DNA of 64,000 bases from a virus. This document shows positions 18,976 through 53,323 of this stretch, piece by piece. How positions within the stretch are numbered: position 1 is the stretch's first letter; every line of letters starts with the position of its first letter. The stretch is taken from positions 6,070 through 70,069 of IMG/VR virus record IMGVR_UViG_3300021091_005158. One strand, given 5' to 3'. A program made the position numbers and the translations under genes. Under the pieces are notes generated by a model that saw only the letters and a program-made list of their open reading frames with translations, did no database searches and was not told the DNA's origin.

Positions 18976-20271
18976 ATGTACTATATAGTCGAAACTATAG
19001 AACAATTAAAACATCTTCCAAAAACAAATCAATGTTTTATAGATCTAGTTTCACTTTCCGAAGAAACCCACCCACTACTAACATCTCCATGCGTCCTGTA
19101 TTATAACGATTTTAAAAAAGGATACATTTTTCCTATAAACCATTCTGAAGGGTTTTCCTTAAGTCTTGACGATATACAAAATTTAATTTTTGATATTAAA
19201 AAAGTATATTTACTAGATAAAAAATGGCATTCTTATTTTTTTCATATTCCGCAAGGAATAGATCTGTATTTTAATATCCTAGATAAAGCAGGAGAAATAA
19301 AAGATCTCCAATTTAATACACCCGTACATCTTGACTTTTATAATAAGTTTAAATATAAAGAGCAAGTAAATACTCTTATACCTATTTCAAAGCATTATGA
19401 AAAGAGTGAATCTATATTTGAAACAGTTAAGAGCTATGTAGGATCTGAAAACGATCAGAAATGGCAAAATGAGTATGTCGAAGCCTATAAATGGGTAGAA
19501 GAACAAGGTATAACAGTAAATGAACGGGTATTTGATAAGTTTTTTGAACCTACATGGAAGGCTAGATCTTTTAAAGATAATAGAATCTATACAAGCTACA
19601 ACCTTTATAATATTACTTCTAGACCTACTAATGCTTTTAATGGAATTAATTTTCTTGCTTTAAATAAAGAAAATGGTTCTAGAGCAAGTTTTATACCTCA
19701 AAATGATATCTTAATTGAATTTGATTTTGATGGTTATCACATAAGGTTAATAGCTAACATGTTAAACGTACCGCTTCCCTCTGACGAATCTATACATGTA
19801 ATACTAGGTAAGCAATACTTCGGAAAGCAAGAACTATCACCTGAAGAGTACCAAGAATCTAAGAAAATAACCTTCAGGCAACTCTATAACGGAATCGAAG
19901 AGAAATATAAAAATATAGAGTTGTTTTTTAAGGTTGATCAGTTACTAGAAGCAGTATGGGTAAAATATAAAAGAAATAGTTTTTTAGAACTACCAAATAA
20001 AAGAAAATTAAAGATAGAGAATGCTAACCCGCAAAAACTTTTTAATTACTATGTTCAATGCCTAGAAACTGTTAATAACGTAAAAAAGCTAAATGATTTA
20101 CGTATATTATTCAAAGGTAAAAAAAGCAAAGTAATTTTAATAGTTTACGACTCAATTCTTGTTGACTATTCAACTGAGGACGGAAAAGGATTTCTAAAGC
20201 AAATAAAAGAAGTGCTAGAACAAGATGGATATAGGGTTAAAGCACAAAAAGGATACAACTATAACTTTTAG
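18976..20271 (+). CDS. Compact family-A DNA polymerase paralog (431 aa)
   Basis: TSRPTNAFNGINFLAL (cf. TGRLSSSDPNLQNIP), EFDFDGYHIRLIANML (motif A, DYSQIELR-like), KKITFRQLYNG (O-helix-like) and VYDSILVDY (motif C, HDE-like), with Pol I-like spacing. Confidence 0.5.
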   Translation: MYYIVETIEQLKHLPKTNQCFIDLVSLSEETHPLLTSPCVLYYNDFKKGYIFPINHSEGFSLSLDDIQNLIFDIKKVYLLDKKWHSYFFHIPQGIDLYFNILDKAGEIKDLQFNTPVHLDFYNKFKYKEQVNTLIPISKHYEKSESIFETVKSYVGSENDQKWQNEYVEAYKWVEEQGITVNERVFDKFFEPTWKARSFKDNRIYTSYNLYNITSRPTNAFNGINFLALNKENGSRASFIPQNDILIEFDFDGYHIRLIANMLNVPLPSDESIHVILGKQYFGKQELSPEEYQESKKITFRQLYNGIEEKYKNIELFFKVDQLLEAVWVKYKRNSFLELPNKRKLKIENANPQKLFNYYVQCLETVNNVKKLNDLRILFKGKKSKVILIVYDSILVDYSTEDGKGFLKQIKEVLEQDGYRVKAQKGYNYNF

Positions 20272-20778: not shown

Positions 20779-21582
20779 ATGGGTATGGATTTAGGCGCAA
20801 TTAAGTCTAAACTAACCGCCTTGCAAAATCAAAGGCAAAGCGGTCAAAAGAGAGATATGTCTCTTATTTTATGGAAACCGTCAATAGGTAAGCATGTTGT
20901 CCGTATTGTTCCGGCTTTATGGGATAAATCAAATCCTTTTAAAGAGGTAATGTTCCATTACGGTATTGGAAACAAGGTAATGCTAGCCTTAACTAACTAC
21001 GGGGAAAAGGATCCTATTGTAGAGTTTTCCAAACAGCTTGCTTCTAGCGGCGATAAAGAGAACTGGATTATGTCTCGTAAATTAGAACCAAAGATGCGTG
21101 TATTTACTCCTGTTATCGTACGCAGCGAAGAAGAAAAAGGTGTACGCCTTTGGGAATTCGGCAAGCAAATTTATGCTGAATTATTAAGTCTAGCTGATGA
21201 TCCTGATATCGGAGACTTTACTGACATTATTCAAGGCCGCGATATAACTATCGAAACCACCGGGCCTGAAACTAACGGTACTTCTTTTAACCAATCGAAA
21301 GTACGAGTACGTACAAAAACAACACCACTATCTGAAGATTCAAAAGAGGTAGAGAAGTGGCTAGCAAATCAACCGGATTTATTTAGTAGTTTCAGGAAGT
21401 ATAGCTACGAAGATATGAAAGAAGCCCTACTTGGATGGTTGAATCCAGAAGAAACCTCTGAAGAGCTTCCTCCTACCGCTAAACAGGAAGCTACACCTCC
21501 TGCAAAACCAAGCTCTCTTTCTCTAAATACTCCAAAGGCTAAACCTAGCATTGACGAAGAATTCGATGATCTATTTAAGTAA
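20779..21582 (+). CDS. Putative ssDNA-binding protein with acidic C-terminal tail
   Basis: C-terminus ...SIDEEFDDLFK resembles the acidic interaction tails of SSBs (gp32-like); lies immediately upstream of the recombinase gene. Confidence 0.3.
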   Translation: MGMDLGAIKSKLTALQNQRQSGQKRDMSLILWKPSIGKHVVRIVPALWDKSNPFKEVMFHYGIGNKVMLALTNYGEKDPIVEFSKQLASSGDKENWIMSRKLEPKMRVFTPVIVRSEEEKGVRLWEFGKQIYAELLSLADDPDIGDFTDIIQGRDITIETTGPETNGTSFNQSKVRVRTKTTPLSEDSKEVEKWLANQPDLFSSFRKYSYEDMKEALLGWLNPEETSEELPPTAKQEATPPAKPSSLSLNTPKAKPSIDEEFDDLFK

Positions 21583-40247: not shown

Positions 40248-40958
40248 ATGAGTAGAGATAAACATATTAAAATTGAAAAACTAGAGCTTGCACAAGCTGG
40301 CCATGCTAACGGTATTAGTACTTTTTTGCGAGACGCAATTAAAGAAGGAAGAAATTGTTTAACTGAAGGTGAAAAGAAGCTTATTATTGAAGCTGCTTCT
40401 TTACATTACGGCAATTTTCTAACTGCTTTAGGAGTTGACTGGGAAAACGACCCTAATAGCTCGAATACTCCTATGAGAGTGGCTAAGGCCTACGTAAACG
40501 ACTTATGGAAAGGTAGATATGAGCAGCTAGATTCTGTGACTAGCTTTCCGGCTGACGGTTATGACGGAGTAGTATTTGAAGGAGGTATCCCTATTACGAG
40601 TATGTGTAGTCACCATCATCAGACTATTAACGGCCTGTGTCATATCGCTTACGTGCCGACCCTTAAAAGTAGGGTAGTAGGTCTAAGTAAACTTAACCGA
40701 ATTGTAGAGCATTTTAGTAGAAGAGGTTCAATTCAAGAACAATTAACTGTAGCTATTCATAATGCTGTAGATAAAATTTGCGAAGATAATATTGGTGTTG
40801 CAGTAATGATTGAAGCAACTCATAACTGTGTAAGCTGTAGAGGTGTAAAGCATCAAGGTGCTAATATGAAGACCTCTAAGCTATCAGGATGCTTTTTAGT
40901 AGAAGATGCTGCACGAGCTGAATTTTATGAGTTTATTAAAGGTTACCCTAGGAAATAA
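40248..40958 (+). CDS. folE: GTP cyclohydrolase I (FolE)
   Basis: SMCSHHHQTING (cf. the CEHH zinc motif, Glu->Ser) and HNCVSCRGV (second zinc-Cys region); T-fold length plus an N-terminal extension. Confidence 0.65.
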   Translation: MSRDKHIKIEKLELAQAGHANGISTFLRDAIKEGRNCLTEGEKKLIIEAASLHYGNFLTALGVDWENDPNSSNTPMRVAKAYVNDLWKGRYEQLDSVTSFPADGYDGVVFEGGIPITSMCSHHHQTINGLCHIAYVPTLKSRVVGLSKLNRIVEHFSRRGSIQEQLTVAIHNAVDKICEDNIGVAVMIEATHNCVSCRGVKHQGANMKTSKLSGCFLVEDAARAEFYEFIKGYPRK

Positions 40959-42168: not shown

Positions 42169-43184
42169 AGATAGATAAATATAATAAGCTAAGAGTAAAG
42201 CTTGAGGTGCATAAGCTTGAGCAAAACTATTTTACTTTAGATAGAATACTCTACTACTTTTCTTTTCTTGGTAATATATTCCTTATTTACTTTGGATACT
42301 TTTTTGTAAAGTCAATTACTGATAGTATCCCTCCTTTATTTCCTTTTCAGGATACTTTTTTTGCTATTTTCGTAGCACTTTTCCTTACTGGCTATGAACT
42401 AACTAAAAGGTTTGTCTTAGAACAATTGTCAATTAGCATTTTGCAAATAAAAAAATTTACTTATTCTATAGCTGTAGGATCAGTTATTTTTATGGGATTA
42501 ATGGCAGGAAGCTTCTACCTATCAATAAAAGGAGCTCATAGATTAATTGATGATTCAGAGACTATTCAAACCACTCTTGAAACTAGTATTTCATTGAAAG
42601 CCGATTCTATTGCGAAATATTACGATAAAGAGATTAATTATTACAGAACCCAGCCTTCTAAGTCAAGGGTAGATAGACAATATAGGGATTCAATAGTTGC
42701 TTCCCTGCAAAAAAGTAAAGAGACGAAATTAAACGAAATAGAGGATAAGTCTAAAGAAAAAACGGCTAGCAAGCTGGACGTAAGTAGCGAGAATTCAACA
42801 GCATTTTTCTTTATAACTGTATTTTTGGAATTATTAATCTTAGTAGGCGTAGGTTTTAACGCATACTATACTATAGGGAGTTACGACGAAACTAAGAAAC
42901 TCCTACAAACTCCCAAATTCAAGCAGTTGGAGCTTAACTTAAAACTACTTAAATTGTACTATCAAAACGGTAAGAAGTTAGCTGGTGACCCTACTCTATC
43001 TTTCAGCAAATTTCAATCTCTTGTACAGACTGCAGGCTTATACTGCTTTCAGAAAGACCTAAAAGCGTTTACTACTTTATGTCAAGAGCTCGAAATCGCT
43101 AGAGAGTCTAGGGGTAGAAAAAAAGAGTTAACTATGTCTTACGATCAAGCAAAAAAATTGATAGAAAATCAAGAAGGTTTTTAA
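42165..43184 (+). CDS. Membrane-anchored coiled-coil protein
   Basis: N-terminal TM helices (ILYYFSFLGNIFLIYFGYFFV ...) and a long helical Lys/Glu-rich C-terminus. Confidence 0.3.
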   Translation: MKIDKYNKLRVKLEVHKLEQNYFTLDRILYYFSFLGNIFLIYFGYFFVKSITDSIPPLFPFQDTFFAIFVALFLTGYELTKRFVLEQLSISILQIKKFTYSIAVGSVIFMGLMAGSFYLSIKGAHRLIDDSETIQTTLETSISLKADSIAKYYDKEINYYRTQPSKSRVDRQYRDSIVASLQKSKETKLNEIEDKSKEKTASKLDVSSENSTAFFFITVFLELLILVGVGFNAYYTIGSYDETKKLLQTPKFKQLELNLKLLKLYYQNGKKLAGDPTLSFSKFQSLVQTAGLYCFQKDLKAFTTLCQELEIARESRGRKKELTMSYDQAKKLIENQEGF

Positions 43185-45493
43185 TGCAGCAAAAAAGTTA
43201 TGTTATAGTAAATAATAAAGAAACGTTAAAAGAGTTAGTTCAGCATATAGCAACTAGCGAGTACGTAGCGTTAGATACTGAAACCGATAGTTTGAATCCT
43301 AGAAAGGGTCGAATTATCGGCTTTTCTATTTCTGGTGAAGTAGGTAAAGGTTACTATATGCCTATAATGGTATGGAATACTGATAGACTCGAAGAAGTAG
43401 TTATTGAAGGAAAAAACGCTAACGTTTTAGCTAAATATGTTATTAAGCAATTAATAGGGAAGAAAGTTATTTGTCATAACGCTTCTTTCGACTTACGTTA
43501 TATAGAGAATTTTTACGGAATTAACTTGTTAAATTATTTGCATGCTGATACTTCTCTACTTGTGCATACAGTAAAAGAAGAAGGAGCATTTGGATACGGT
43601 AATCCTTTTGGATTAAAAAGTATTGCTATAATGGTTCAAAAGGAAATCGGTTTAGATGTAGAAACTGAAGCTAATGAAGAACAAATAGCTCTTAAAGAGA
43701 GTATAAAAGCAAATGGCGGTTCAACTTCTAAGGAGAATTATGAGATATACAAAGCTGATTTAGTGGTACTATCAAAGTATGCAGCAGCCGATACCGACTT
43801 GACGCTACGTATCTATCATCACTTTTACAAAATATTAGTAGAGGAAGGTCTTGAAAAGTTTTTCTTTGAAGACGAGGTGATGCCTGTTTATAGAGAGGTT
43901 ACTATACCGATGGAGAAACACGGTATTAGATTAGATATCTCTCTTATTAAAGAAACTAAAGATAGAATAACTAAAGACCTCGAAGTGCAGGCAACAGCAG
44001 TACTCAAAGAGTTATTAAAAGAGCCTAAAGTACGCAAATGGATTATTGATCAAGCGGTAGAAGCGTATCCTCCAAAAAGCAAAGGTATATTTGCCCAACG
44101 TCTACTCGAGCAAAATAATATCGATCTACCTAAATCAAATAAGACAGGTAAATTTACTATAAATAAAGCGGCTATATTAGCTCTATCTCCTTCTACTATA
44201 AAGGATTACTTGATGACTGGTGATATAGAAAATCTCACTAAAGATCAAATTGTTAAAGTTAGTTTATCTTTATGGAAAGAGGATAATGACGGCCAGTTCT
44301 TTAATATACAGTCTAAAGATCAAATGGGTAAGATAGCTTTTGATGTATTAGGTGAGAAATCGATTTCAACAACTACTAAAGGAAAGGCTCAATTTGACGA
44401 AGATATGATCCAATCCATAAAGGACAAATATTTATGGGCAAATCATTTACGCTTATACAATAAACTTACTAAAATTAAAACTGCATACGTAGATCGATTT
44501 TTTGATTCAGCTGAGGATGGTAGATTTTATCCTTATTTCAAGCAGAACGGTACTGTATCAGGAAGATACGGATCAGATATGCAGCAGTTGCCTAAGCCAC
44601 TAGAGCCAGGTCAAGAGGAAGATTTAATTATTGGATATACAAACCTTGTAAGAGCTTTCTTTATTGCTGACGAAGGCACTAAGATACTTGATACTGATTA
44701 TGCATCTCTGGAACCTCGGGTATTTGCTACAGTAGCAGGTGATCAAGGTCTGAAAGATATTTTTAATAATGATTTAGATTTTTATTCTCATATTGCTATA
44801 AAAACCGAAAAGCTTGAAGGAGTAAGTGCCCATACCAAAGCTCCTAATTTTCTTAAAAAAATAGATCCCGTCAAAAGACAGACTGCAAAAGGTTATGCGT
44901 TAGGTGTACCGTACGGAATGTCCGGATATGCCCTAGCAATGTCGTTAGGAGTAGATAGGAAAGAAGGAGAAAGACTTGTAGAAGGTTACTTAGATGGATT
45001 TCCTGAATTAAGAAAGTGGAGAGAGAATTCTAGAAAGTTTGTTAAAGAGAACGGCTATATTAAGAATAAGGTAGGTCGAATCAGGCATTTGCCACAGGCT
45101 AAGGAAATCTATTCTGCCCTAGGGGATAGGCTTATTGAAGACTGGAGGTTTAGAAAAGATTTGGAGAGAGAGTATGGAGTAGAGTACACAACTGGTTTGT
45201 ATAGAGATTATAAAAATGCACTTAACAACTGTTTAAACTTTCAAATTCAGAGTTATTCAGCAAGCATAGTAAACCGTGCAGCCCTACAAATCAATAGGAG
45301 ATTCAAGGGAGAAGGCATTAGAGGGCAGGTAATTTGTCAAATTCATGACCAACTAGTATGCCAAGTTAAAGAAGAAGACGTAAAACGTGCATGCGAAATA
45401 GTACAAGACTGTATGGAGAATACAACTAAGCTAGAAGGTGTGCAACTTATTGCCGATCCGGAAGTTTCGGTTAATTTTCGTGATGGACACTAG
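43184..45493 (+). CDS. polA: DNA polymerase I (family A) with 3'-5' exonuclease domain
   Basis: Exo I VALDTETDSL; SGRYGSDMQQLP; motif A ILDTDYASLEPRVFA; motif B RQTAKGYALGVPYG; motif C QIHDQLVCQV. Confidence 0.85.
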   Translation: MQQKSYVIVNNKETLKELVQHIATSEYVALDTETDSLNPRKGRIIGFSISGEVGKGYYMPIMVWNTDRLEEVVIEGKNANVLAKYVIKQLIGKKVICHNASFDLRYIENFYGINLLNYLHADTSLLVHTVKEEGAFGYGNPFGLKSIAIMVQKEIGLDVETEANEEQIALKESIKANGGSTSKENYEIYKADLVVLSKYAAADTDLTLRIYHHFYKILVEEGLEKFFFEDEVMPVYREVTIPMEKHGIRLDISLIKETKDRITKDLEVQATAVLKELLKEPKVRKWIIDQAVEAYPPKSKGIFAQRLLEQNNIDLPKSNKTGKFTINKAAILALSPSTIKDYLMTGDIENLTKDQIVKVSLSLWKEDNDGQFFNIQSKDQMGKIAFDVLGEKSISTTTKGKAQFDEDMIQSIKDKYLWANHLRLYNKLTKIKTAYVDRFFDSAEDGRFYPYFKQNGTVSGRYGSDMQQLPKPLEPGQEEDLIIGYTNLVRAFFIADEGTKILDTDYASLEPRVFATVAGDQGLKDIFNNDLDFYSHIAIKTEKLEGVSAHTKAPNFLKKIDPVKRQTAKGYALGVPYGMSGYALAMSLGVDRKEGERLVEGYLDGFPELRKWRENSRKFVKENGYIKNKVGRIRHLPQAKEIYSALGDRLIEDWRFRKDLEREYGVEYTTGLYRDYKNALNNCLNFQIQSYSASIVNRAALQINRRFKGEGIRGQVICQIHDQLVCQVKEEDVKRACEIVQDCMENTTKLEGVQLIADPEVSVNFRDGH

Positions 45494-45601: not shown

Positions 45602-46039
45602 ATGACAGCACTTTTTCGTGCGTTCGAGCTCGATCCGTTTGACTTGCTATGGAAAGACCTAAAAGAAGCACAAGCACATTTTTCTGCAATTACGCAGAGA
45701 GTAACCCATCCTGTTGATATTTTCGAAACTAAAAGCGGTATTCGTTTTGAAATAGCCGCAGTAGGCCTTAGTGTCGAGGATATTCTTATTTCTGTTGAGA
45801 ATGATTCTCTTAGAATTTGTTACGATAAACCTGCACAACAGGAAGAAAATCATCCAATTTATAAGGGTATTAAGAGATCAAGTTTTGATCTTACTTGGAA
45901 AATTTCAACTAAGTTCGACTTAAGTAACCTTGAAGCATCTCTCGATAAAGGTCTTTTGACTTTAAATATACCAATTGCTGTAGGTAAAGCTACTCGAAAA
46001 ATTTCTATTACTACACCTAAAGCTTTTCTTGAGAATTAA
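45602..46039 (+). CDS. Small heat-shock protein (Hsp20/alpha-crystallin family)
   Basis: Alpha-crystallin-domain pattern: ETKSGIRFEIAAVGLSVEDILISVENDSLRI...RSSFDLTWKIS...LDKGLLTLNIP. Confidence 0.6.
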   Translation: MTALFRAFELDPFDLLWKDLKEAQAHFSAITQRVTHPVDIFETKSGIRFEIAAVGLSVEDILISVENDSLRICYDKPAQQEENHPIYKGIKRSSFDLTWKISTKFDLSNLEASLDKGLLTLNIPIAVGKATRKISITTPKAFLEN

Positions 46040-46046
46040 ATAAGTA

Positions 46047-46060
46047 GCCTACTAAGTACC
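46047..46060. repeat. Right arm of the 14-bp inverted repeat flanking the Hsp20 gene
   Basis: gcctactaagtacc. Confidence 0.7.
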
Positions 46061-46064
46061 AGTT

Positions 46065-46253
46065 ATGTTTACACTTACTAAGCAGTTTATTCCATTTAAT
46101 AGCAAACTCTTTTTAATTAAAAAAATTATTAAGGAAGATGATTTTCCCGTAATAGAAGTCTGGAAAGAGTATCTTCAGGCCGATACAATATTAAAGAAAG
46201 AAGGATTACTTTATTTTTTAGTAACAGTTGAAGATTTGGAGATTATTTCTTAA
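46065..46253 (+). CDS. Hypothetical small protein
   Basis: ORF only. Confidence 0.2.
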   Translation: MFTLTKQFIPFNSKLFLIKKIIKEDDFPVIEVWKEYLQADTILKKEGLLYFLVTVEDLEIIS

Positions 46254-46273
46254 ATTAAATTAAAATAAAAAGT

Positions 46274-46645
46274 ATGTCGAAGTTACAACCGTTAAATGGG
46301 TATTTAATTTTAAGACCTATAGAAGAAGAGGAACAAATGTATGGTAATATTGTTATTCCAGATTTAGGAAAAGAGAGGCCTGAGATGGGAGAAGTGATTG
46401 CTGTCTCTGCTACGTATAATTTTAATTCTGATAAACTAGTACTTTCAAATCTTGAATTAGGAGACAAAGTTCTTATCCCTAAACTAGGTTCTCTAAGAAT
46501 CACTGTAGAAAGCGAAGAATATTTTATTTGCAAAGAGCAAGACGTCTACGCAAAATTAAGCGGACAATTAAGTGTTTTATCAGTTCTTAAAGAGACAGTA
46601 GTTGATCCTGATTTTGAAAAATACAACAACAGTAAAGTATCATAA
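46274..46645 (+). CDS. groES: Co-chaperonin GroES
   Basis: LQPLNGYLILRPIEEEEQ...GNIVIPD matches GroES (kPL.DRVlvkr.E.E..t.gGI.lP). Confidence 0.7.
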   Translation: MSKLQPLNGYLILRPIEEEEQMYGNIVIPDLGKERPEMGEVIAVSATYNFNSDKLVLSNLELGDKVLIPKLGSLRITVESEEYFICKEQDVYAKLSGQLSVLSVLKETVVDPDFEKYNNSKVS

Positions 46646-46646
46646 A

Positions 46647-48269
46647 ATGACAACAACAGTATTTGGAATTGAATTAAAAAATAAGTTACTTGCGGGTATT
46701 AAAAAATTAAATGAATCGGTAACTTCCACTTTAGGGCCAGGAGGCCGTACAGTGTTAATTAAAGAAAAATCTGGCGAAGTAAAAGTAACTAAAGACGGAG
46801 TTACAGTAGCTCGTTCCTTTCACGAACTTGAAGACCAGGTTGAAGACCTTGGTGCCCAGCTAGTAAAGCAGGTATCCATAAAGTCTGCTAATGAAGCAGG
46901 AGACGGAACTACTACCTCTACTCTTCTTGCTACAACAATGGTTGAAGAAGGATTAAAGCTTATTAATCAAGGATCTAACCCAGTAGAGGTTAAGAAAGCT
47001 ATTGAGGTTTACGTAAAAGAAGTTATCGATAACTTAAAAAAAATATCGAAAGATATTTCCTCTCAAGATCAAATTCGTCAAGTAGCAGCTATCTCTGCAA
47101 ATAACGATATTGAGATAGGCAATCTAATATCAGCTGCTATTGAAAAAGTAGGAAGAGAAGGTATTGTTACTATTGAAGAATCTAAAACAGGTGAAACTGC
47201 TTTGGAGATAGTAGAAGGTATGCAGTTTGATAGAGGATACAAATCCCCATACTTCGTTACTAATAATACTACAATGCATGCAGTCTTGAATGAACCTTAT
47301 ATTCTTATTTACGATGGCCGTATCACTAAAGCTGCTGATATTTTAAATTCGTTAACTAAAGCCAACTCCGATCAAAAAGCTTTACTAATAGTAGCTGAAG
47401 ATATAGAAGACGAAGCGCTTGCTACTTTGATAGTAAATAAAATGCGCGGTATAGTTTATGTAGCAGGAGTAAAAGCTCCTGACTTTGGGGAACGCCGTAC
47501 TTTAATCTTAGAAGATCTAGCTATTTTAACCGGGGGACAGGTAATTTCTAAAAATAAAGGACATAAACTAGAGAAAATAACCCCGTTACAGTTAACGGAA
47601 TTTTTCGGAGTCGCAAGAACTGTTACGGTATCTAAAGAAACCACTACTATAGTTGATGGCAAAGGTAATATAGATGCTATAAGCTTAAGAGCTGAAGAGA
47701 TAAAAGATCAAATTGAAAAAGCTACATCATTTTATGAGAAAGAAAAGCTTCAGGAGAGGCTTGGTAAATTAGTTGGCGGAGTAGCTATTATTTCAGTAGG
47801 AGGAAATTCCGATATTGAGATTAAAGAAAAGAAAGATAGGGTAGAAGATGCTTTGTTTGCTACTAAAGCAGCTCTAGTAGAAGGCGTAGTTCCTGGTGGA
47901 GGACTTGCATTAATTACAGCATTCGAAAATATTAAATTACCTTTAACATCAAGCGATGAGCAAAAAGGTTGGAATATAGTTAAAAGAGCTTGTCATGCTC
48001 CTTTCAAAGTAATTTTAACAAACTGTGGTATTGAAGATCACTACCGTATTTTAAGTGAAATTAAGAATTATGAAAGTCAAGAATCAGCTCACACTTATGA
48101 TGCTAAAAATCAAAAAGTAGTAGAGGCAACTGAAGCAGGTCTTCTTGATCCGACTAAAGTCACACGTACTGCTCTTGAAAATGCTGCCTCCGTAGCAGGT
48201 ACTATACTAACAACAGAATCAGTAATTTTCGAAAAAAAAGACGATAAGAAAAAAGATGAAGAAATTTAA
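46647..48269 (+). CDS. groEL: Chaperonin GroEL
   Basis: [17 protein letters not shown] and GGGLAL motifs. Start placed at MTTTVFG (46647), just after the GroES stop; the listed ORF start at 46602 overlaps GroES. Confidence 0.85.
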
Positions 48270-49880: not shown

Positions 49881-50771
49881 ATGAAAAAAATTGCAAAAAT
49901 TTTAATTGCACTCGGAATTGGTTCTCTCATAGCAGGAGCAATTTTATGGAATTGGAATCAACCAACTCCAACTCCACCTCAACCATTACCAACAGTAGAT
50001 ACAACACAATACACTGATGTCGTGTTAGTAAACAAATCACAACTTGATTCAGTTCAAGTGTGGGTTACCCTCCAAGCAGGAGAATCAATTGTTGGTCTAT
50101 TTGGTATGGACTCTTCGAACATGTTCAACAGTCAATCAGATGTTGGTAACTTTTGGGCTAAAAAAGGTATTGAATATCACTTAGGCGATACAACCGCTTT
50201 AACTGGTGTTATCGTTACATGGGGAGTTCAAAACCAAGCGTGTACAGCTGCACAAGCTGCAGGTTATCCATTCGGTATTAATAATTTCGAATTTACGGTA
50301 AATACATGGTGGCAAAACGGTGAGCTAACAGGTGCGGGCGAATCATTTGATATCACATGTGTTGATGGACTACATTCCATACTACAACAAAACGTAACTT
50401 CATTCGGTCCGAGAGTAGATTCCGTCCTTTCTCCAAATTTCGGAGCATTTTGGGATTTCGGATATAAAGATAACACAGGAAAACTTAAGCCATTCGTTGG
50501 TTCAACAAACGGTGCTACTTTTGCTGAATGTGTAAATATTCCTGGTGTATTCCCTTACCAATGTGATTGGGGATACAGACAGTATTCACCACCTCCAGCA
50601 TGTAGTAATCCTTCCTATCCTGTAAAATGTTCTGATAAATGGGGACAAATAAATACGTCTCAAACAAATAGACAAGGTCAAGGTGGTCAAGTCATTTGTA
50701 CATTTATAGGATTTACAGCTGACCTACAACCAGGTTCAGGTGATAGTGCTTCAACCTTAAAGGTAAAGTAA
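49881..50771 (+). CDS. Secreted/anchored Cys-rich protein
   Basis: N-terminal signal/anchor MKKIAKILIALGIGSLIAGAIL; about 12 Cys in the mature part. Confidence 0.3.
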   Translation: MKKIAKILIALGIGSLIAGAILWNWNQPTPTPPQPLPTVDTTQYTDVVLVNKSQLDSVQVWVTLQAGESIVGLFGMDSSNMFNSQSDVGNFWAKKGIEYHLGDTTALTGVIVTWGVQNQACTAAQAAGYPFGINNFEFTVNTWWQNGELTGAGESFDITCVDGLHSILQQNVTSFGPRVDSVLSPNFGAFWDFGYKDNTGKLKPFVGSTNGATFAECVNIPGVFPYQCDWGYRQYSPPPACSNPSYPVKCSDKWGQINTSQTNRQGQGGQVICTFIGFTADLQPGSGDSASTLKVK

Positions 50772-50850
50772 AAAGATTTCATCTAATAATCAGCCGCTAA
50801 GGCTACGCAGGATCAATATCTTTTGCTTTATAGTTAGTTCTTTATAATAT

Positions 50851-51278
50851 GGGGGAGTCCAGGTATTGCTCCGTAATGTGAAGGTAATACTACATGCAGG
50901 CGTTTGGATATGTCGCCTTTAAACAAATTTTCAAACAATAAATGACGAAATGTCAACAATGACCTATGATGACCTAGTGGCATTTGTAGGTGCTGAAGAG
51001 TACGCATACGCGGCTTAGTAAGCTTGGGGCAGCTGATAGCCTCGCAACAGAACAGCAGCGAGTCGTACGCTATAGAGACGGCATCCGGACGCATATTGCG
51101 AGCCGTGAGTTTCCTAGTTTAGAGTAAAATTAGGTGGTGGAAGGCACGCTAACCAAAACTAGTGGCCCCAACTACTGATCAGCTTGCAGATCTAAGCATG
51201 TGATACGCTGGTGTTATTGTTCCTTATGGATACACGGGTTCGATTCCCGTCTCCTCCACTATTTATAGATGTAAAAGA
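50851..51278 (+). ncRNA. ssrA: tmRNA (SsrA)-like gene
   Basis: 5' GGGGGAG pairs with 3' CTCCTCC (7 bp, one G-U), followed by discriminator A. T-arm acggg-TTCGATT-cccgt. Internal tag-like ORF ggt gct gaa gag tac gca tac gcg gct TAG TAA (G-A-E-E-Y-A-Y-A-A**) at 50989-51021. Confidence 0.55.
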
Positions 51279-51285
51279 GTATGAA

Positions 51286-51331
51286 AACGTTACTTACATC
51301 TATATCTTTTTCATTAAGCACCTTTATAGTA
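51286..51331 (+). terminator. Intrinsic terminator downstream of tmRNA
   Basis: tagatgtaa ... ttacatcta 9-bp stem followed by a T-rich tract (tatctttttc). Confidence 0.5.
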
Positions 51332-53167: not shown

Positions 53168-53240
53168 TGACTATTAGCTCAGAAGGTTAGAGCAAGCCCT
53201 AAATCAGGCCGTGCCACTGGTTCGATTCCAGTATAGTCAC
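53168..53240 (+). tRNA. tRNA-like gene with non-canonical anticodon arm (possible pseudo-tRNA)
   Basis: Acceptor tgactat/atagtca, D-arm gctc-agaaggtta-gagc and T-arm actgg-TTCGATT-ccagt are intact. The 17-nt anticodon region agccctaaatcaggccg does not fold into a 5-bp stem. Confidence 0.35.
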
Positions 53241-53247
53241 CTTATAC

Positions 53248-53321
53248 TGACTCTTAGCTCAGTTGGTGAGAGCGGCTGACTCATAATCAGTAGGTGACTG
53301 GTTCGATTCCAGTAGAGTCAA
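53248..53321 (+). tRNA. tRNA-Met/Ile2 (anticodon CAT)
   Basis: Acceptor tgactct/agagtca; D-arm gctc...gagc; anticodon stem gctga/tcagt with loop ctCATaa; T-arm actgg-TTCGATT-ccagt. Confidence 0.7.
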
Positions 53322-53323
53322 CG

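Follow-up and report, generated by a model that had tools for sequence, protein, structure and literature searches.

A phage-encoded tmRNA, probably functional, with a 24-codon tag in a large immuto-related myophage

Why would a large bacteriophage carry the bacterial ribosome-rescue RNA, and which peptide would this RNA append to the chains it rescues? The question is raised by a locus in the IMG/VR virus record IMGVR_UViG_3300021091_005158, of which the 64,000 nucleotides (nt) from position 6,070 to position 70,069 were analysed (hereafter the window, whose own coordinates are used throughout). An earlier note, made from the letters alone, had placed a phage-borne transfer-messenger RNA (tmRNA, ssrA) here. 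The locus is indeed a tmRNA gene inside a phage genome, with a conserved structure, a resume codon at position 50944 and selection acting on the whole of a 24-codon tag peptide. Taken together, the sequence comparisons make it likely that 50851-51258 is a genuine, functional, one-piece tmRNA of a large virulent immuto-related myophage, carrying a 24-codon tag.

Identity and conserved structure of the RNA

Both ARAGORN and the Rfam model RF00023 call a tmRNA at this place. ARAGORN delimits it at 50851-51259 on the plus strand and gives its tag as AEEYAYAA followed by two stops, whereas RF00023 aligns over its full length (model positions 1-374) to 50851-51261 with 56.2 bits against a gathering score of 47 (E 2.4e-19); a family profile scores the gene at 405 bits with nhmmer. 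The elements of the RNA are as follows (PK, pseudoknot).

50851-51258, plus strand: tmRNA gene, 408 nt from the mature 5' G1 to the discriminator A (ARAGORN, Rfam RF00023, nhmmer profile)
50851-50857, plus strand: 5' strand of the acceptor stem, GGGGGAG, with G3 in a G·U pair (G3·U in 46/46, pairs 4-7 covary)
50870-50897, plus strand: 5' strand of helix 2, in segments 50870-50876, 50883-50892 and 50893-50897 (covariation)
50898-50932, plus strand: PK1, a hairpin AGGCG...CGCCU (50898-50918) whose loop GGAUAU pairs with AUUUUC at 50927-50932 (covariation)
50933-50943, plus strand: 11-nt A-rich spacer AAACAAUAAAU, with U at -5 and A at -4 before the resume codon (family comparison)
50944-51015, plus strand: tag frame of 24 codons, DEMSTMTYDDLVAFVGAEEYAYAA, with resume codon GAC (frame reading, selection, geometry)
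51016-51021, plus strand: tandem stops UAG UAA (sequence)
51022-51195, plus strand: central domain at the position of PK2-PK4, with a long-range GGGG...CCCC helix and a covarying hairpin CCUAGUUU/AAAUUAGG (RNAalifold, 7 members)
51196-51230, plus strand: 3' strand of helix 2, GCAUG ... UUAUGGA (pairing and covariation)
51234-51250, plus strand: T-arm, ACGGG-UUCGAUU-CCCGU (5/5 pairs covary, 100% of cells paired)
51251-51257, plus strand: 3' strand of the acceptor stem, CUCCUCC (pairing with 50851-50857)
51265-51311, plus strand: candidate intrinsic terminator, a 10-bp A/U-rich hairpin (51265-51274 with 51294-51303) followed by U5 (51307-51311)

Pattern scans of IMG/VR yielded about 60 viral contigs, the longest of 179 kb, whose homologs are full-length and measure 358-514 nt, 46 of them being unique in sequence. 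The 428 nt of the earlier note, described there as above the bacterial norm, shrink on measurement to 408 nt to the discriminator (about 411 nt counting CCA), an unremarkable length within this family. As nothing at E<=1e-5 turned up when the tmRNA region was compared by blastn with 50,697 phage records, there is no cultured homolog to draw on. CCA is encoded in 11 of the 46 family members; in the window the discriminator is followed by CUA (A-CUA), so that CCA is not encoded and must be added or repaired.

An explicit core structure, comprising the acceptor, the T-arm, three helix-2 segments, the PK1 hairpin and PK1 stem 2, was counted on the alignment of the 46 sequences. Its 45 pairs are formed in 90% of cells, compared with 77.6% in column shuffles and 37-52% with slid partners, and compensatory double changes occur in 30 of them. 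The G3·U wobble is invariant (46/46); the G3·U70 pair is the alanine identity element for alanyl-tRNA synthetase (AlaRS). Acceptor pairs 4-7 covary around it (GGGGAUG/CAUCUCC, GGGGCAU/AUGCUCC, GGGCCUG/CAGGUCC), helices 2-4 of the core structure are 94-100% paired with double changes in 11 pairs, and the PK1 hairpin has double changes in 4 of its 5 pairs. PK1 stem 2, where the alignment is unreliable, was tested without it, by pairing each member's 3' segment, anchored on the resume codon, with its own loop and with the loops of other members. The 7 nt that end 11 nt ahead of the resume codon prefer the loop of the same molecule to the loops of other members by a wide margin, with a total score of 236 that none of 5000 permutations reaches; shuffle tests of this stem sequence by sequence had no power (median p 0.46). 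Variants include GGAUAU/AUUUUC in the window and GGAUGU/ACUUUC, CGUAU/AUACG, AGUAU/AUACU and GUUCU/GGAAC elsewhere.

The central domain, where PK2-PK4, common in tmRNAs though dispensable, would lie, is less regular: it has a low posterior in the Rfam alignment, large indels among members, a variable length and a partly resolved fold, and in the window it holds an insert of about 50 nt in common with the homolog on contig L006.

The earlier note had proposed ARAGORN and Infernal RF00023 scans, and a search for covariation among related phages, as its checks, and would have given the gene up had no covariance-model match been found or had no pseudoknot and resume context been buildable. The match lies above the gathering score, covariation is present in the acceptor, T-arm, helix 2 and PK1 around an invariant G3·U, and neither PK1 nor a resume context is difficult to construct. 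Discriminator A, the 7-bp acceptor GGGGGAG/CUCCUCC and the canonical T-arm with its loop of GUUCGAnUC type are there as described, the acceptor with the G3·U pair in addition. Its claim of an own terminator holds in part. A hairpin and T-run follow the gene, and a hairpin that runs into a T-run, no farther than 90 nt downstream, is a feature of the family (27/46 members, compared with 37 of 360 random 90-mers from the same loci), in many members a textbook G+C-rich one; the hairpin of the window stands at the corresponding position and is weak, with 2 G-C pairs only and a fold z-score of -1.45, and a consensus terminator scanner did not call it. An own terminator is thus plausible. A TATAAT at -8 to -3 was discarded as promoter of the tmRNA, being too near to G1.

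Two related contigs carry a reduced form of the molecule. At L009:8894-8974 and L015:2042-2122, both on the minus strand, lie 81-nt mini-tmRNAs that consist of the tRNA-like domain (TLD) only, with an acceptor, a D-like loop, a short helix 2, a T-arm and an encoded CCA and with neither tag nor pseudoknots. Rfam scores them at 67 and 66 bits over model positions 1-374, and their 3' 28 nt are identical to those of the window tmRNA.

Extent of the tag reading frame

In Escherichia coli tmRNA the resume codon stands 12 nt after PK1, and A86 at -4 is decisive and nearly universal, while the change U85C is tolerated (PMC2481249). The phage family matches these rules, with GAC 12 nt after PK1 and A at -4 in the window. 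The spacer between PK1 and the resume codon is 11 nt long in 44/44 members; A(-4) is present in 41/41, the base before it (-5) is U or C, and the resume codon begins with G in 41/41 (GAC, GCA or GUA). The Rfam consensus resume codon GCa is aligned onto the same GAC, and ARAGORN itself reports a long tag, e.g. DEMSTMTFDDLMAFVGADYAVAA, in more than 30 homologs.

The frame opened at this codon is conserved as a peptide. Its variable columns number 10, 9 and 23 at the three codon positions (entropy 7.7, 3.8 and 19.1), and every indel in it comprises whole codons. In the 12-codon core of the 16-codon stretch that precedes AEEYAYAA, the ratio of nonsynonymous to synonymous differences (pN/pS) is 0.175 at a pS of 0.54, and the other frames fail, +1 being closed by stops and +2 giving a ratio of 1.85. 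It is because of this low ratio, the whole-codon indels and the failure of the other frames that the extension is read as coding, and by these sequence measures it evolves as coding sequence. In the group of L003, L004 and L005 the acceptor, PK1, helix 2 and T-arm have all diverged from those of the window, and the tag peptide is retained.

The tag is bipartite. Its C-terminal part follows the pattern ...(D/E)YA(L/V/Y)AA, with DYALAA in 17 members, DYAVAA in 13 and EYAYAA in 3, and upstream of it lies an acidic and aromatic module of 16 residues with the core T-F/Y-D-D-L-x-A-F-V-G. A degenerate pattern for the extension matched 46 loci in IMG/VR and none in 185,579 bacterial and archaeal species genomes (one for each species), and the tag motif string has no occurrence in the indexed literature; judged by these scans, the module is phage-specific. 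One family member, at L049:4072-4453, has a truncated tag (ending FVGADYE and a stop), a diverged downstream region and no ARAGORN call, and may be decaying.

The earlier note's tag was therefore cut short. The ending GAEEYAYAA is present and the tandem TAG TAA was found where the frame closes, at 51016-51021, but the tag comprises the 24 codons that start from GAC at 50944 and not 8-9, which is about three times the length first given. ARAGORN gives the short or the long tag inconsistently for near-identical genes, and automated tag annotations of phage tmRNAs are consequently not to be taken at face value.

Proposed mechanism and competing explanations

The earlier note had suggested that the RNA might rescue ribosomes stalled on host mRNAs under degradation, or retarget tagging. 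We infer that the RNA is expressed and charged, that it works with host SmpB, what proteolysis makes of the tagged chains and what the module binds, and the course of events would be as follows. The transcript would be matured at G1 and its 3' end completed by a CCA-adding enzyme, giving an RNA of about 410 nt from G 50851 to ...CUCCUCCA-CCA. Host AlaRS would charge it with alanine through the invariant G3·U, and host SmpB and EF-Tu would bring the charged molecule to ribosomes stalled on broken or stop-less mRNAs. Translation would resume at GAC (50944), 12 nt after PK1, run for 24 codons and end at UAG UAA, leaving a nascent chain that ends in Ala-DEMSTMTYDDLVAFVGAEEYAYAA. The C-terminal ...YA(L/V/Y)AA resembles the ssrA degrons read by ClpXP-type proteases, and the 16-residue module would probably serve for docking, or as a second recognition signal, and so decide what becomes of tagged products during infection.

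It is intriguing to go one step further and to suppose that the module (core T-F-D-D-L-M-A-F-V-G) is a docking motif evolved by phages and placed on every rescued chain, steering the products to a partner or protease of the phage's choice; that it is interchangeable between phages; and that long bipartite tags are a general, convergent phage adaptation. This extended proposal is tentative, and we regard it as rather unlikely in its full form. One lead comes from single-stranded DNA-binding proteins (SSB): a resemblance between the tag core and SSB C-terminal tips was predicted first and then looked for. The gp32-like SSB of the window (20779-21582, C-terminus 21553-21579) ends in ...EEFDDLFK, and that of phage immuto, the closest cultured relative introduced below, in ...KFDDLFN. 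Within the ORF set (open reading frames) of the window, 20,081 amino acids in all, FDDL occurs only at the SSB C-terminus, with 0.26 occurrences expected. The tip E-F-D-[D/E]-L-F-(K/N/Q) is kept in 64 of 67 homologs (L068:2426-3265 and L076-L142), down to 52% identity, while the linker preceding it varies. The tag core T-F-D-D-L-M-A-F and the tip have FDDL and an aromatic residue in common. The likeness covers four residues only, the aromatic spacing differs, and an alternative tag of the family is without the motif; the link is a lead of low weight and not a conclusion.

Other explanations of the same observations deserve to be weighed, and the one that survives best is that the RNA is mainly a decoy or modulator, which titrates host SmpB, AlaRS or EF-Tu or out-competes the host tmRNA, with tagging as a secondary matter. 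The TLD-only molecules of L009 and L015, which have the same acceptor and T-arm, would fit such a role, as would the proposal that a TLD-only molecule of phage DS6A titrates SmpB (PMC4131195) and the fact that the window holds no phage SmpB. A decoy, however, needs neither a peptide under strong purifying selection nor an invariant frame-setting context nor conserved stops, and PK1 and helix 2 covary; we consider the explanation improbable.

That a functional phage tmRNA uses a short tag only, from GCU 50992 or GGU 50989 (AEEYAYAA or GAEEYAYAA), with the conserved upstream part serving as RNA structure or spacer, also seems improbable, and marginally more so. It is ARAGORN's call for the window and about 8 homologs; the context GUAGGU-GCU has U(-5) and A(-4), as has UAGUC-GCA in E. 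coli; and the 9 residues of GAEEYAYAA equal in length the native Bacteroides tag GETNYALAA. Yet the site lies 59 nt from PK1 and not 12, and 7/41 members have lost its A(-4) by codon changes that are synonymous or conservative (GTA to GTT, Val to Ile). The 16 codons upstream combine the pN/pS of 0.175 with near-saturated synonymous change, whole-codon indels and an absence of stops, and both the long ARAGORN calls in more than 30 homologs and the Rfam alignment of the consensus resume codon to GAC point to the longer frame.

There is very little chance that the conserved frame is an ordinary ATG-initiated gene for a small protein (about 19-22 amino acids) set within a tmRNA-like scaffold. Two in-frame ATGs in the window (DEMSTM...) and the purifying selection on the peptide could be so understood, but both ATGs are replaced in other members (ATG to TTG or TTA, Leu; ATG to TGG, Trp) while the residues preceding them are conserved, and the frame begins just where the tmRNA resume geometry places it and closes with a terminus of canonical ssrA type.

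Least credible of all is the idea of a bacterial ssrA, or of what is left of an attachment site, at the border of an integrated prophage. The 3' ends of ssrA genes are well known to be used for integration (PMC3203893), and the G+C content of the tmRNA (47%) exceeds that of its surroundings (about 34%). But a higher G+C is usual in structured RNAs, the genes on both sides are syntenic with those of a lytic phage, and the ORFs are almost all co-directional and uniform in composition, with no integrase among those scanned. The gene is complete, and homologs of it lie inside about 60 viral contigs, in at least 8 of them with the same linkage to Hsp20-GroES-GroEL. The long-tag pattern is found in 0/185,579 species genomes, and the scan of these genomes with the 3' end brought up no bacterial tmRNA; a prophage junction or attP remnant was accordingly rejected on synteny and family context.

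A functional tmRNA with a 24-codon tag has to be held against several less favourable observations. The Rfam score is just 9 bits over gathering, with the central domain poorly aligned; the PK1 stem 2 of the window is among the weakest of the family, having a U·U mismatch and a self score no better than cross-pairings; and the UA at -5/-4 of the short-tag site offers a possible second resume point in the window. No SmpB, CCA-adding enzyme or Clp/Lon was found in the 64-kb window, which is a part of the genome only, and a sigma-70 promoter scan upstream of the gene gave nothing convincing. The host is deduced solely from 55% identity of PolA to that of a Flavobacterium phage and from the G+C content of 34%, and a scan of the species genomes with the 24-nt 3' end of the tmRNA recovered one tRNA-Ala, in an Acidimicrobiales metagenome-assembled genome (MAG), one unannotatable contig and no host tmRNA. 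With these points taken into account, the window tmRNA is still probably functional, as far as the comparisons allow one to judge.

Phage setting, tag exchange and relation to known tmRNAs

The ORFs of the window are tightly packed, almost all on the plus strand, and of uniform composition at about 34% G+C. Pfam and PHROG matches include tail sheath, tube and baseplate proteins, a gp32-like SSB, UvsX/RecA, DnaB, ribonucleotide reductase, PolA, Hsp20, GroES, GroEL, a metallophosphoesterase, a PD-(D/E)XK nuclease and several glycosyltransferases (GT). The closest cultured relative is the 160-kb lytic Flavobacterium myophage vB_FspM_immuto (PolA 55% identical in amino acids), whose gene order PolA-GroES-GroEL ... 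DUF3310-PD(D/E)XK-GT-GT mirrors the window on both sides of the tmRNA. This synteny places the tmRNA inside the phage genome, and together with the T4-like genes of the window it bears out the earlier description of the gene as phage-borne. Neither ARAGORN nor Rfam finds a tmRNA in the immuto genome, which makes the gene an accessory one among these phages. The neighbouring features referred to here are listed below.

31170-31634: QueD/PTPS
36570-37460: QueC
38226-39143: QueF
40248-40958: GTP cyclohydrolase I (FolE)
45602-46039: Hsp20, part of a proteostasis cluster at 45602-48269
46274-46645: GroES, proteostasis cluster
46602-48269: GroEL, proteostasis cluster, 2.6 kb upstream of the tmRNA
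53168-53240, plus strand: tRNA-like gene (Rfam tRNA, 40.6 bits)
53248-53322: tRNA-Met, directly downstream of the tRNA-like gene

The tmRNA lies downstream of Hsp20-GroES-GroEL in at least 8 contigs (L011, L016, L021, L042, L004/L005, L044, L060, L002), and tRNA-Leu(UAA) or tRNA arrays adjoin it at most family loci.

Within this family, tags and scaffolds have different histories. By its proteins the closest relative of the window is L011, with the same gene order and 91-97% amino acid identity (PolA 91%, GroEL 94%), and the tRNA-like domains of the two are identical across the last ~75 nt. The tag and central domain of the window match instead those of L006, with synonymous differences only in the tag; the acceptor and T-arm of L006 differ from those of the window by compensatory changes, and its flanking proteins are just 47-63% identical. 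The tmRNA of L011 bears an unrelated tag of 26 codons, ATREKRIAEGGAILASLFSEKYAVAA, common to L053 and L062; this second tag (ATREKRIAEGGAILASLFSEKYAVAA or ATRQERIAEGEAILASIFNEEFALAA, resume codon GCA, at L011:9420-9812, L053:1408-1841 and L062:3336-3771) sits in a scaffold that is otherwise very similar. By sequence, the window tmRNA is a mosaic of L011-like and L006-like parts. Given an L011-like tRNA-like domain, an L006-like tag and a different tag in the closest relative, tag modules and RNA scaffolds (tRNA-like domains) appear to be exchanged independently among co-circulating phages.

Several neighbours merit a remark of their own. The tRNA-like gene at 53168-53240 has an aberrant anticodon arm, with a 3-bp stem and an 8-nt loop, in which ARAGORN reads a 4-nt anticodon 'aaat'; its homologs at L011:11510-11583 and L006:865-964 likewise have 4-nt anticodons ('aaaa', 'ctca'), and the gene could be frameshift-suppressor-like or degenerate. 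Just upstream of the tmRNA, the ORF 49881-50771 (plus strand, 296 amino acids) matches nothing in Pfam or PHROG and is without homologs at any of the family loci; the otherwise collinear L011 lacks it, and it looks like a recent insertion. The 86-amino-acid ORF 50834-51094 on the minus strand was rejected as a gene: its tblastn matches in 44 loci mirror the conservation of the RNA, which makes it a trap for automatic annotation.

The genes between 31170 and 40958 form a 7-deazaguanine/queuosine-type pathway, also found in immuto, there with DpdA, and this suggests that the DNA may be modified. Two genes related to family-A DNA polymerases, at 18976-20271 and 43184-45493, comprise a complete PolA, 3'-5' exonuclease domain included, and a 431-amino-acid ORF with only a weak DNA_pol_A match; the immuto annotation likewise lists 'DNA polymerase family A' twice. 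In the window the Bacteroidota -7 motif TAnnTTTG shows no enrichment (87 observed, 82 expected) and so gives no information on host or promoters. The Acidimicrobiales MAG OZ220692.1 holds 29 tRNA genes within 5 kb (L066:3036-7846), including a tRNA-Ala whose 24-nt T-arm and acceptor 3' sequence is the same as that of the window tmRNA; the array could be a phage-derived one in a bacterial chromosome.

Phage tmRNAs as such are already known. They occur in mycobacteriophages of cluster C and in Bacillus phage G (PMC4131195), in huge phages (PMC7162821) and in the Cellulophaga phages Calle, phi14:2 and phi38:1 (PMC8776804; Table S1 of PMC9004378), and a survey counted them in 402 of 18,146 phage genomes (~2.3%), two-piece forms such as those of pelagiphages (Melnitz) included (PMC9004378). 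The roles proposed for them are the maintenance of translation or selective protein tagging (PMC9004378, PMC7162821, PMC8776804). Unlike the two-piece forms, the window family is one-piece and without a riboswitch. A paper on AcrIIIA1 and tmRNA deals with fragments of the host molecule and has no bearing here. For phi14:2 (NC_021806, L074:4031-4500), a crAss-like phage, ARAGORN calls a tmRNA with the tag GSSVQKLAMVA and a coding part at position 165, and Rfam makes no call at its gathering score; the frame is open for about 30 codons upstream of the called tag, which may be mis-delimited. With a call from ARAGORN only and an ambiguous frame, phi14:2 was dropped as a flavobacterial comparator.

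The kind of gene described here is thus ordinary, and the biology of its tag is unstudied and testable. Phage tmRNAs have been catalogued rather than studied functionally, no study of long phage tmRNA tags was found in the literature, and the present family, with its ~60 members and a selected long tag, gives a clean comparative handle. If the module alters the fate of tagged proteins, phages would reprogram a core bacterial quality-control system and not merely top it up.

Compared with bacterial one-piece SsrA, the phage family has in common a tRNA-like domain with G3·U, helix 2, PK1 with an A-rich spacer behind it that has U(-5) and A(-4), translation resuming 12 nt after PK1 at a codon that begins with G, a Y-A-x-A-A end with stops, and a central domain that may be of pseudoknot type. 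It differs in its tag, which in the window has 24 codons against 9-10 (ANDENYALAA in E. coli) and an extra conserved N-terminal module of 16 residues. The window gene differs further in its resume codon, GAC (Asp) and not GCA or GGN, in its location on a virulent-type phage, in a divergent central domain (56 bits in Rfam) and in a CCA that is not encoded. Mycobacteriophage DS6A has a TLD-only molecule for which titration of SmpB has been proposed (PMC4131195); the 81-nt molecules of L009 and L015 resemble it while having the same acceptor and T-arm as the window gene, but the window gene itself is set apart from this reduced type by its full length and its selected tag frame.

The nearest parallel is mycobacteriophage Bxz1 (cluster C), the first phage tmRNA to be described, where a full-length gene likewise lies near tRNA genes in a large myophage genome and has a long tag, about twice the length of its host's: ATDTDATVTDAEIEAFFAEEAAALV, 25 codons from gene position 96 according to ARAGORN. 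No nucleotide homology between the two is detectable by blastn, the host phylum and G+C content are different, and the Bxz1 tag ends in ...AAALV whereas the window family ends in ...YAxAA. Their layouts are nonetheless similar, each with an acidic part, a hydrophobic-x-A-F-hydrophobic stretch, A-E-E and an Ala-rich end (EIEAFF-AEE in Bxz1 against DLVAFVGAEE), a loose resemblance that is short and compositionally biased. Long phage tags thus have a precedent in Bxz1.

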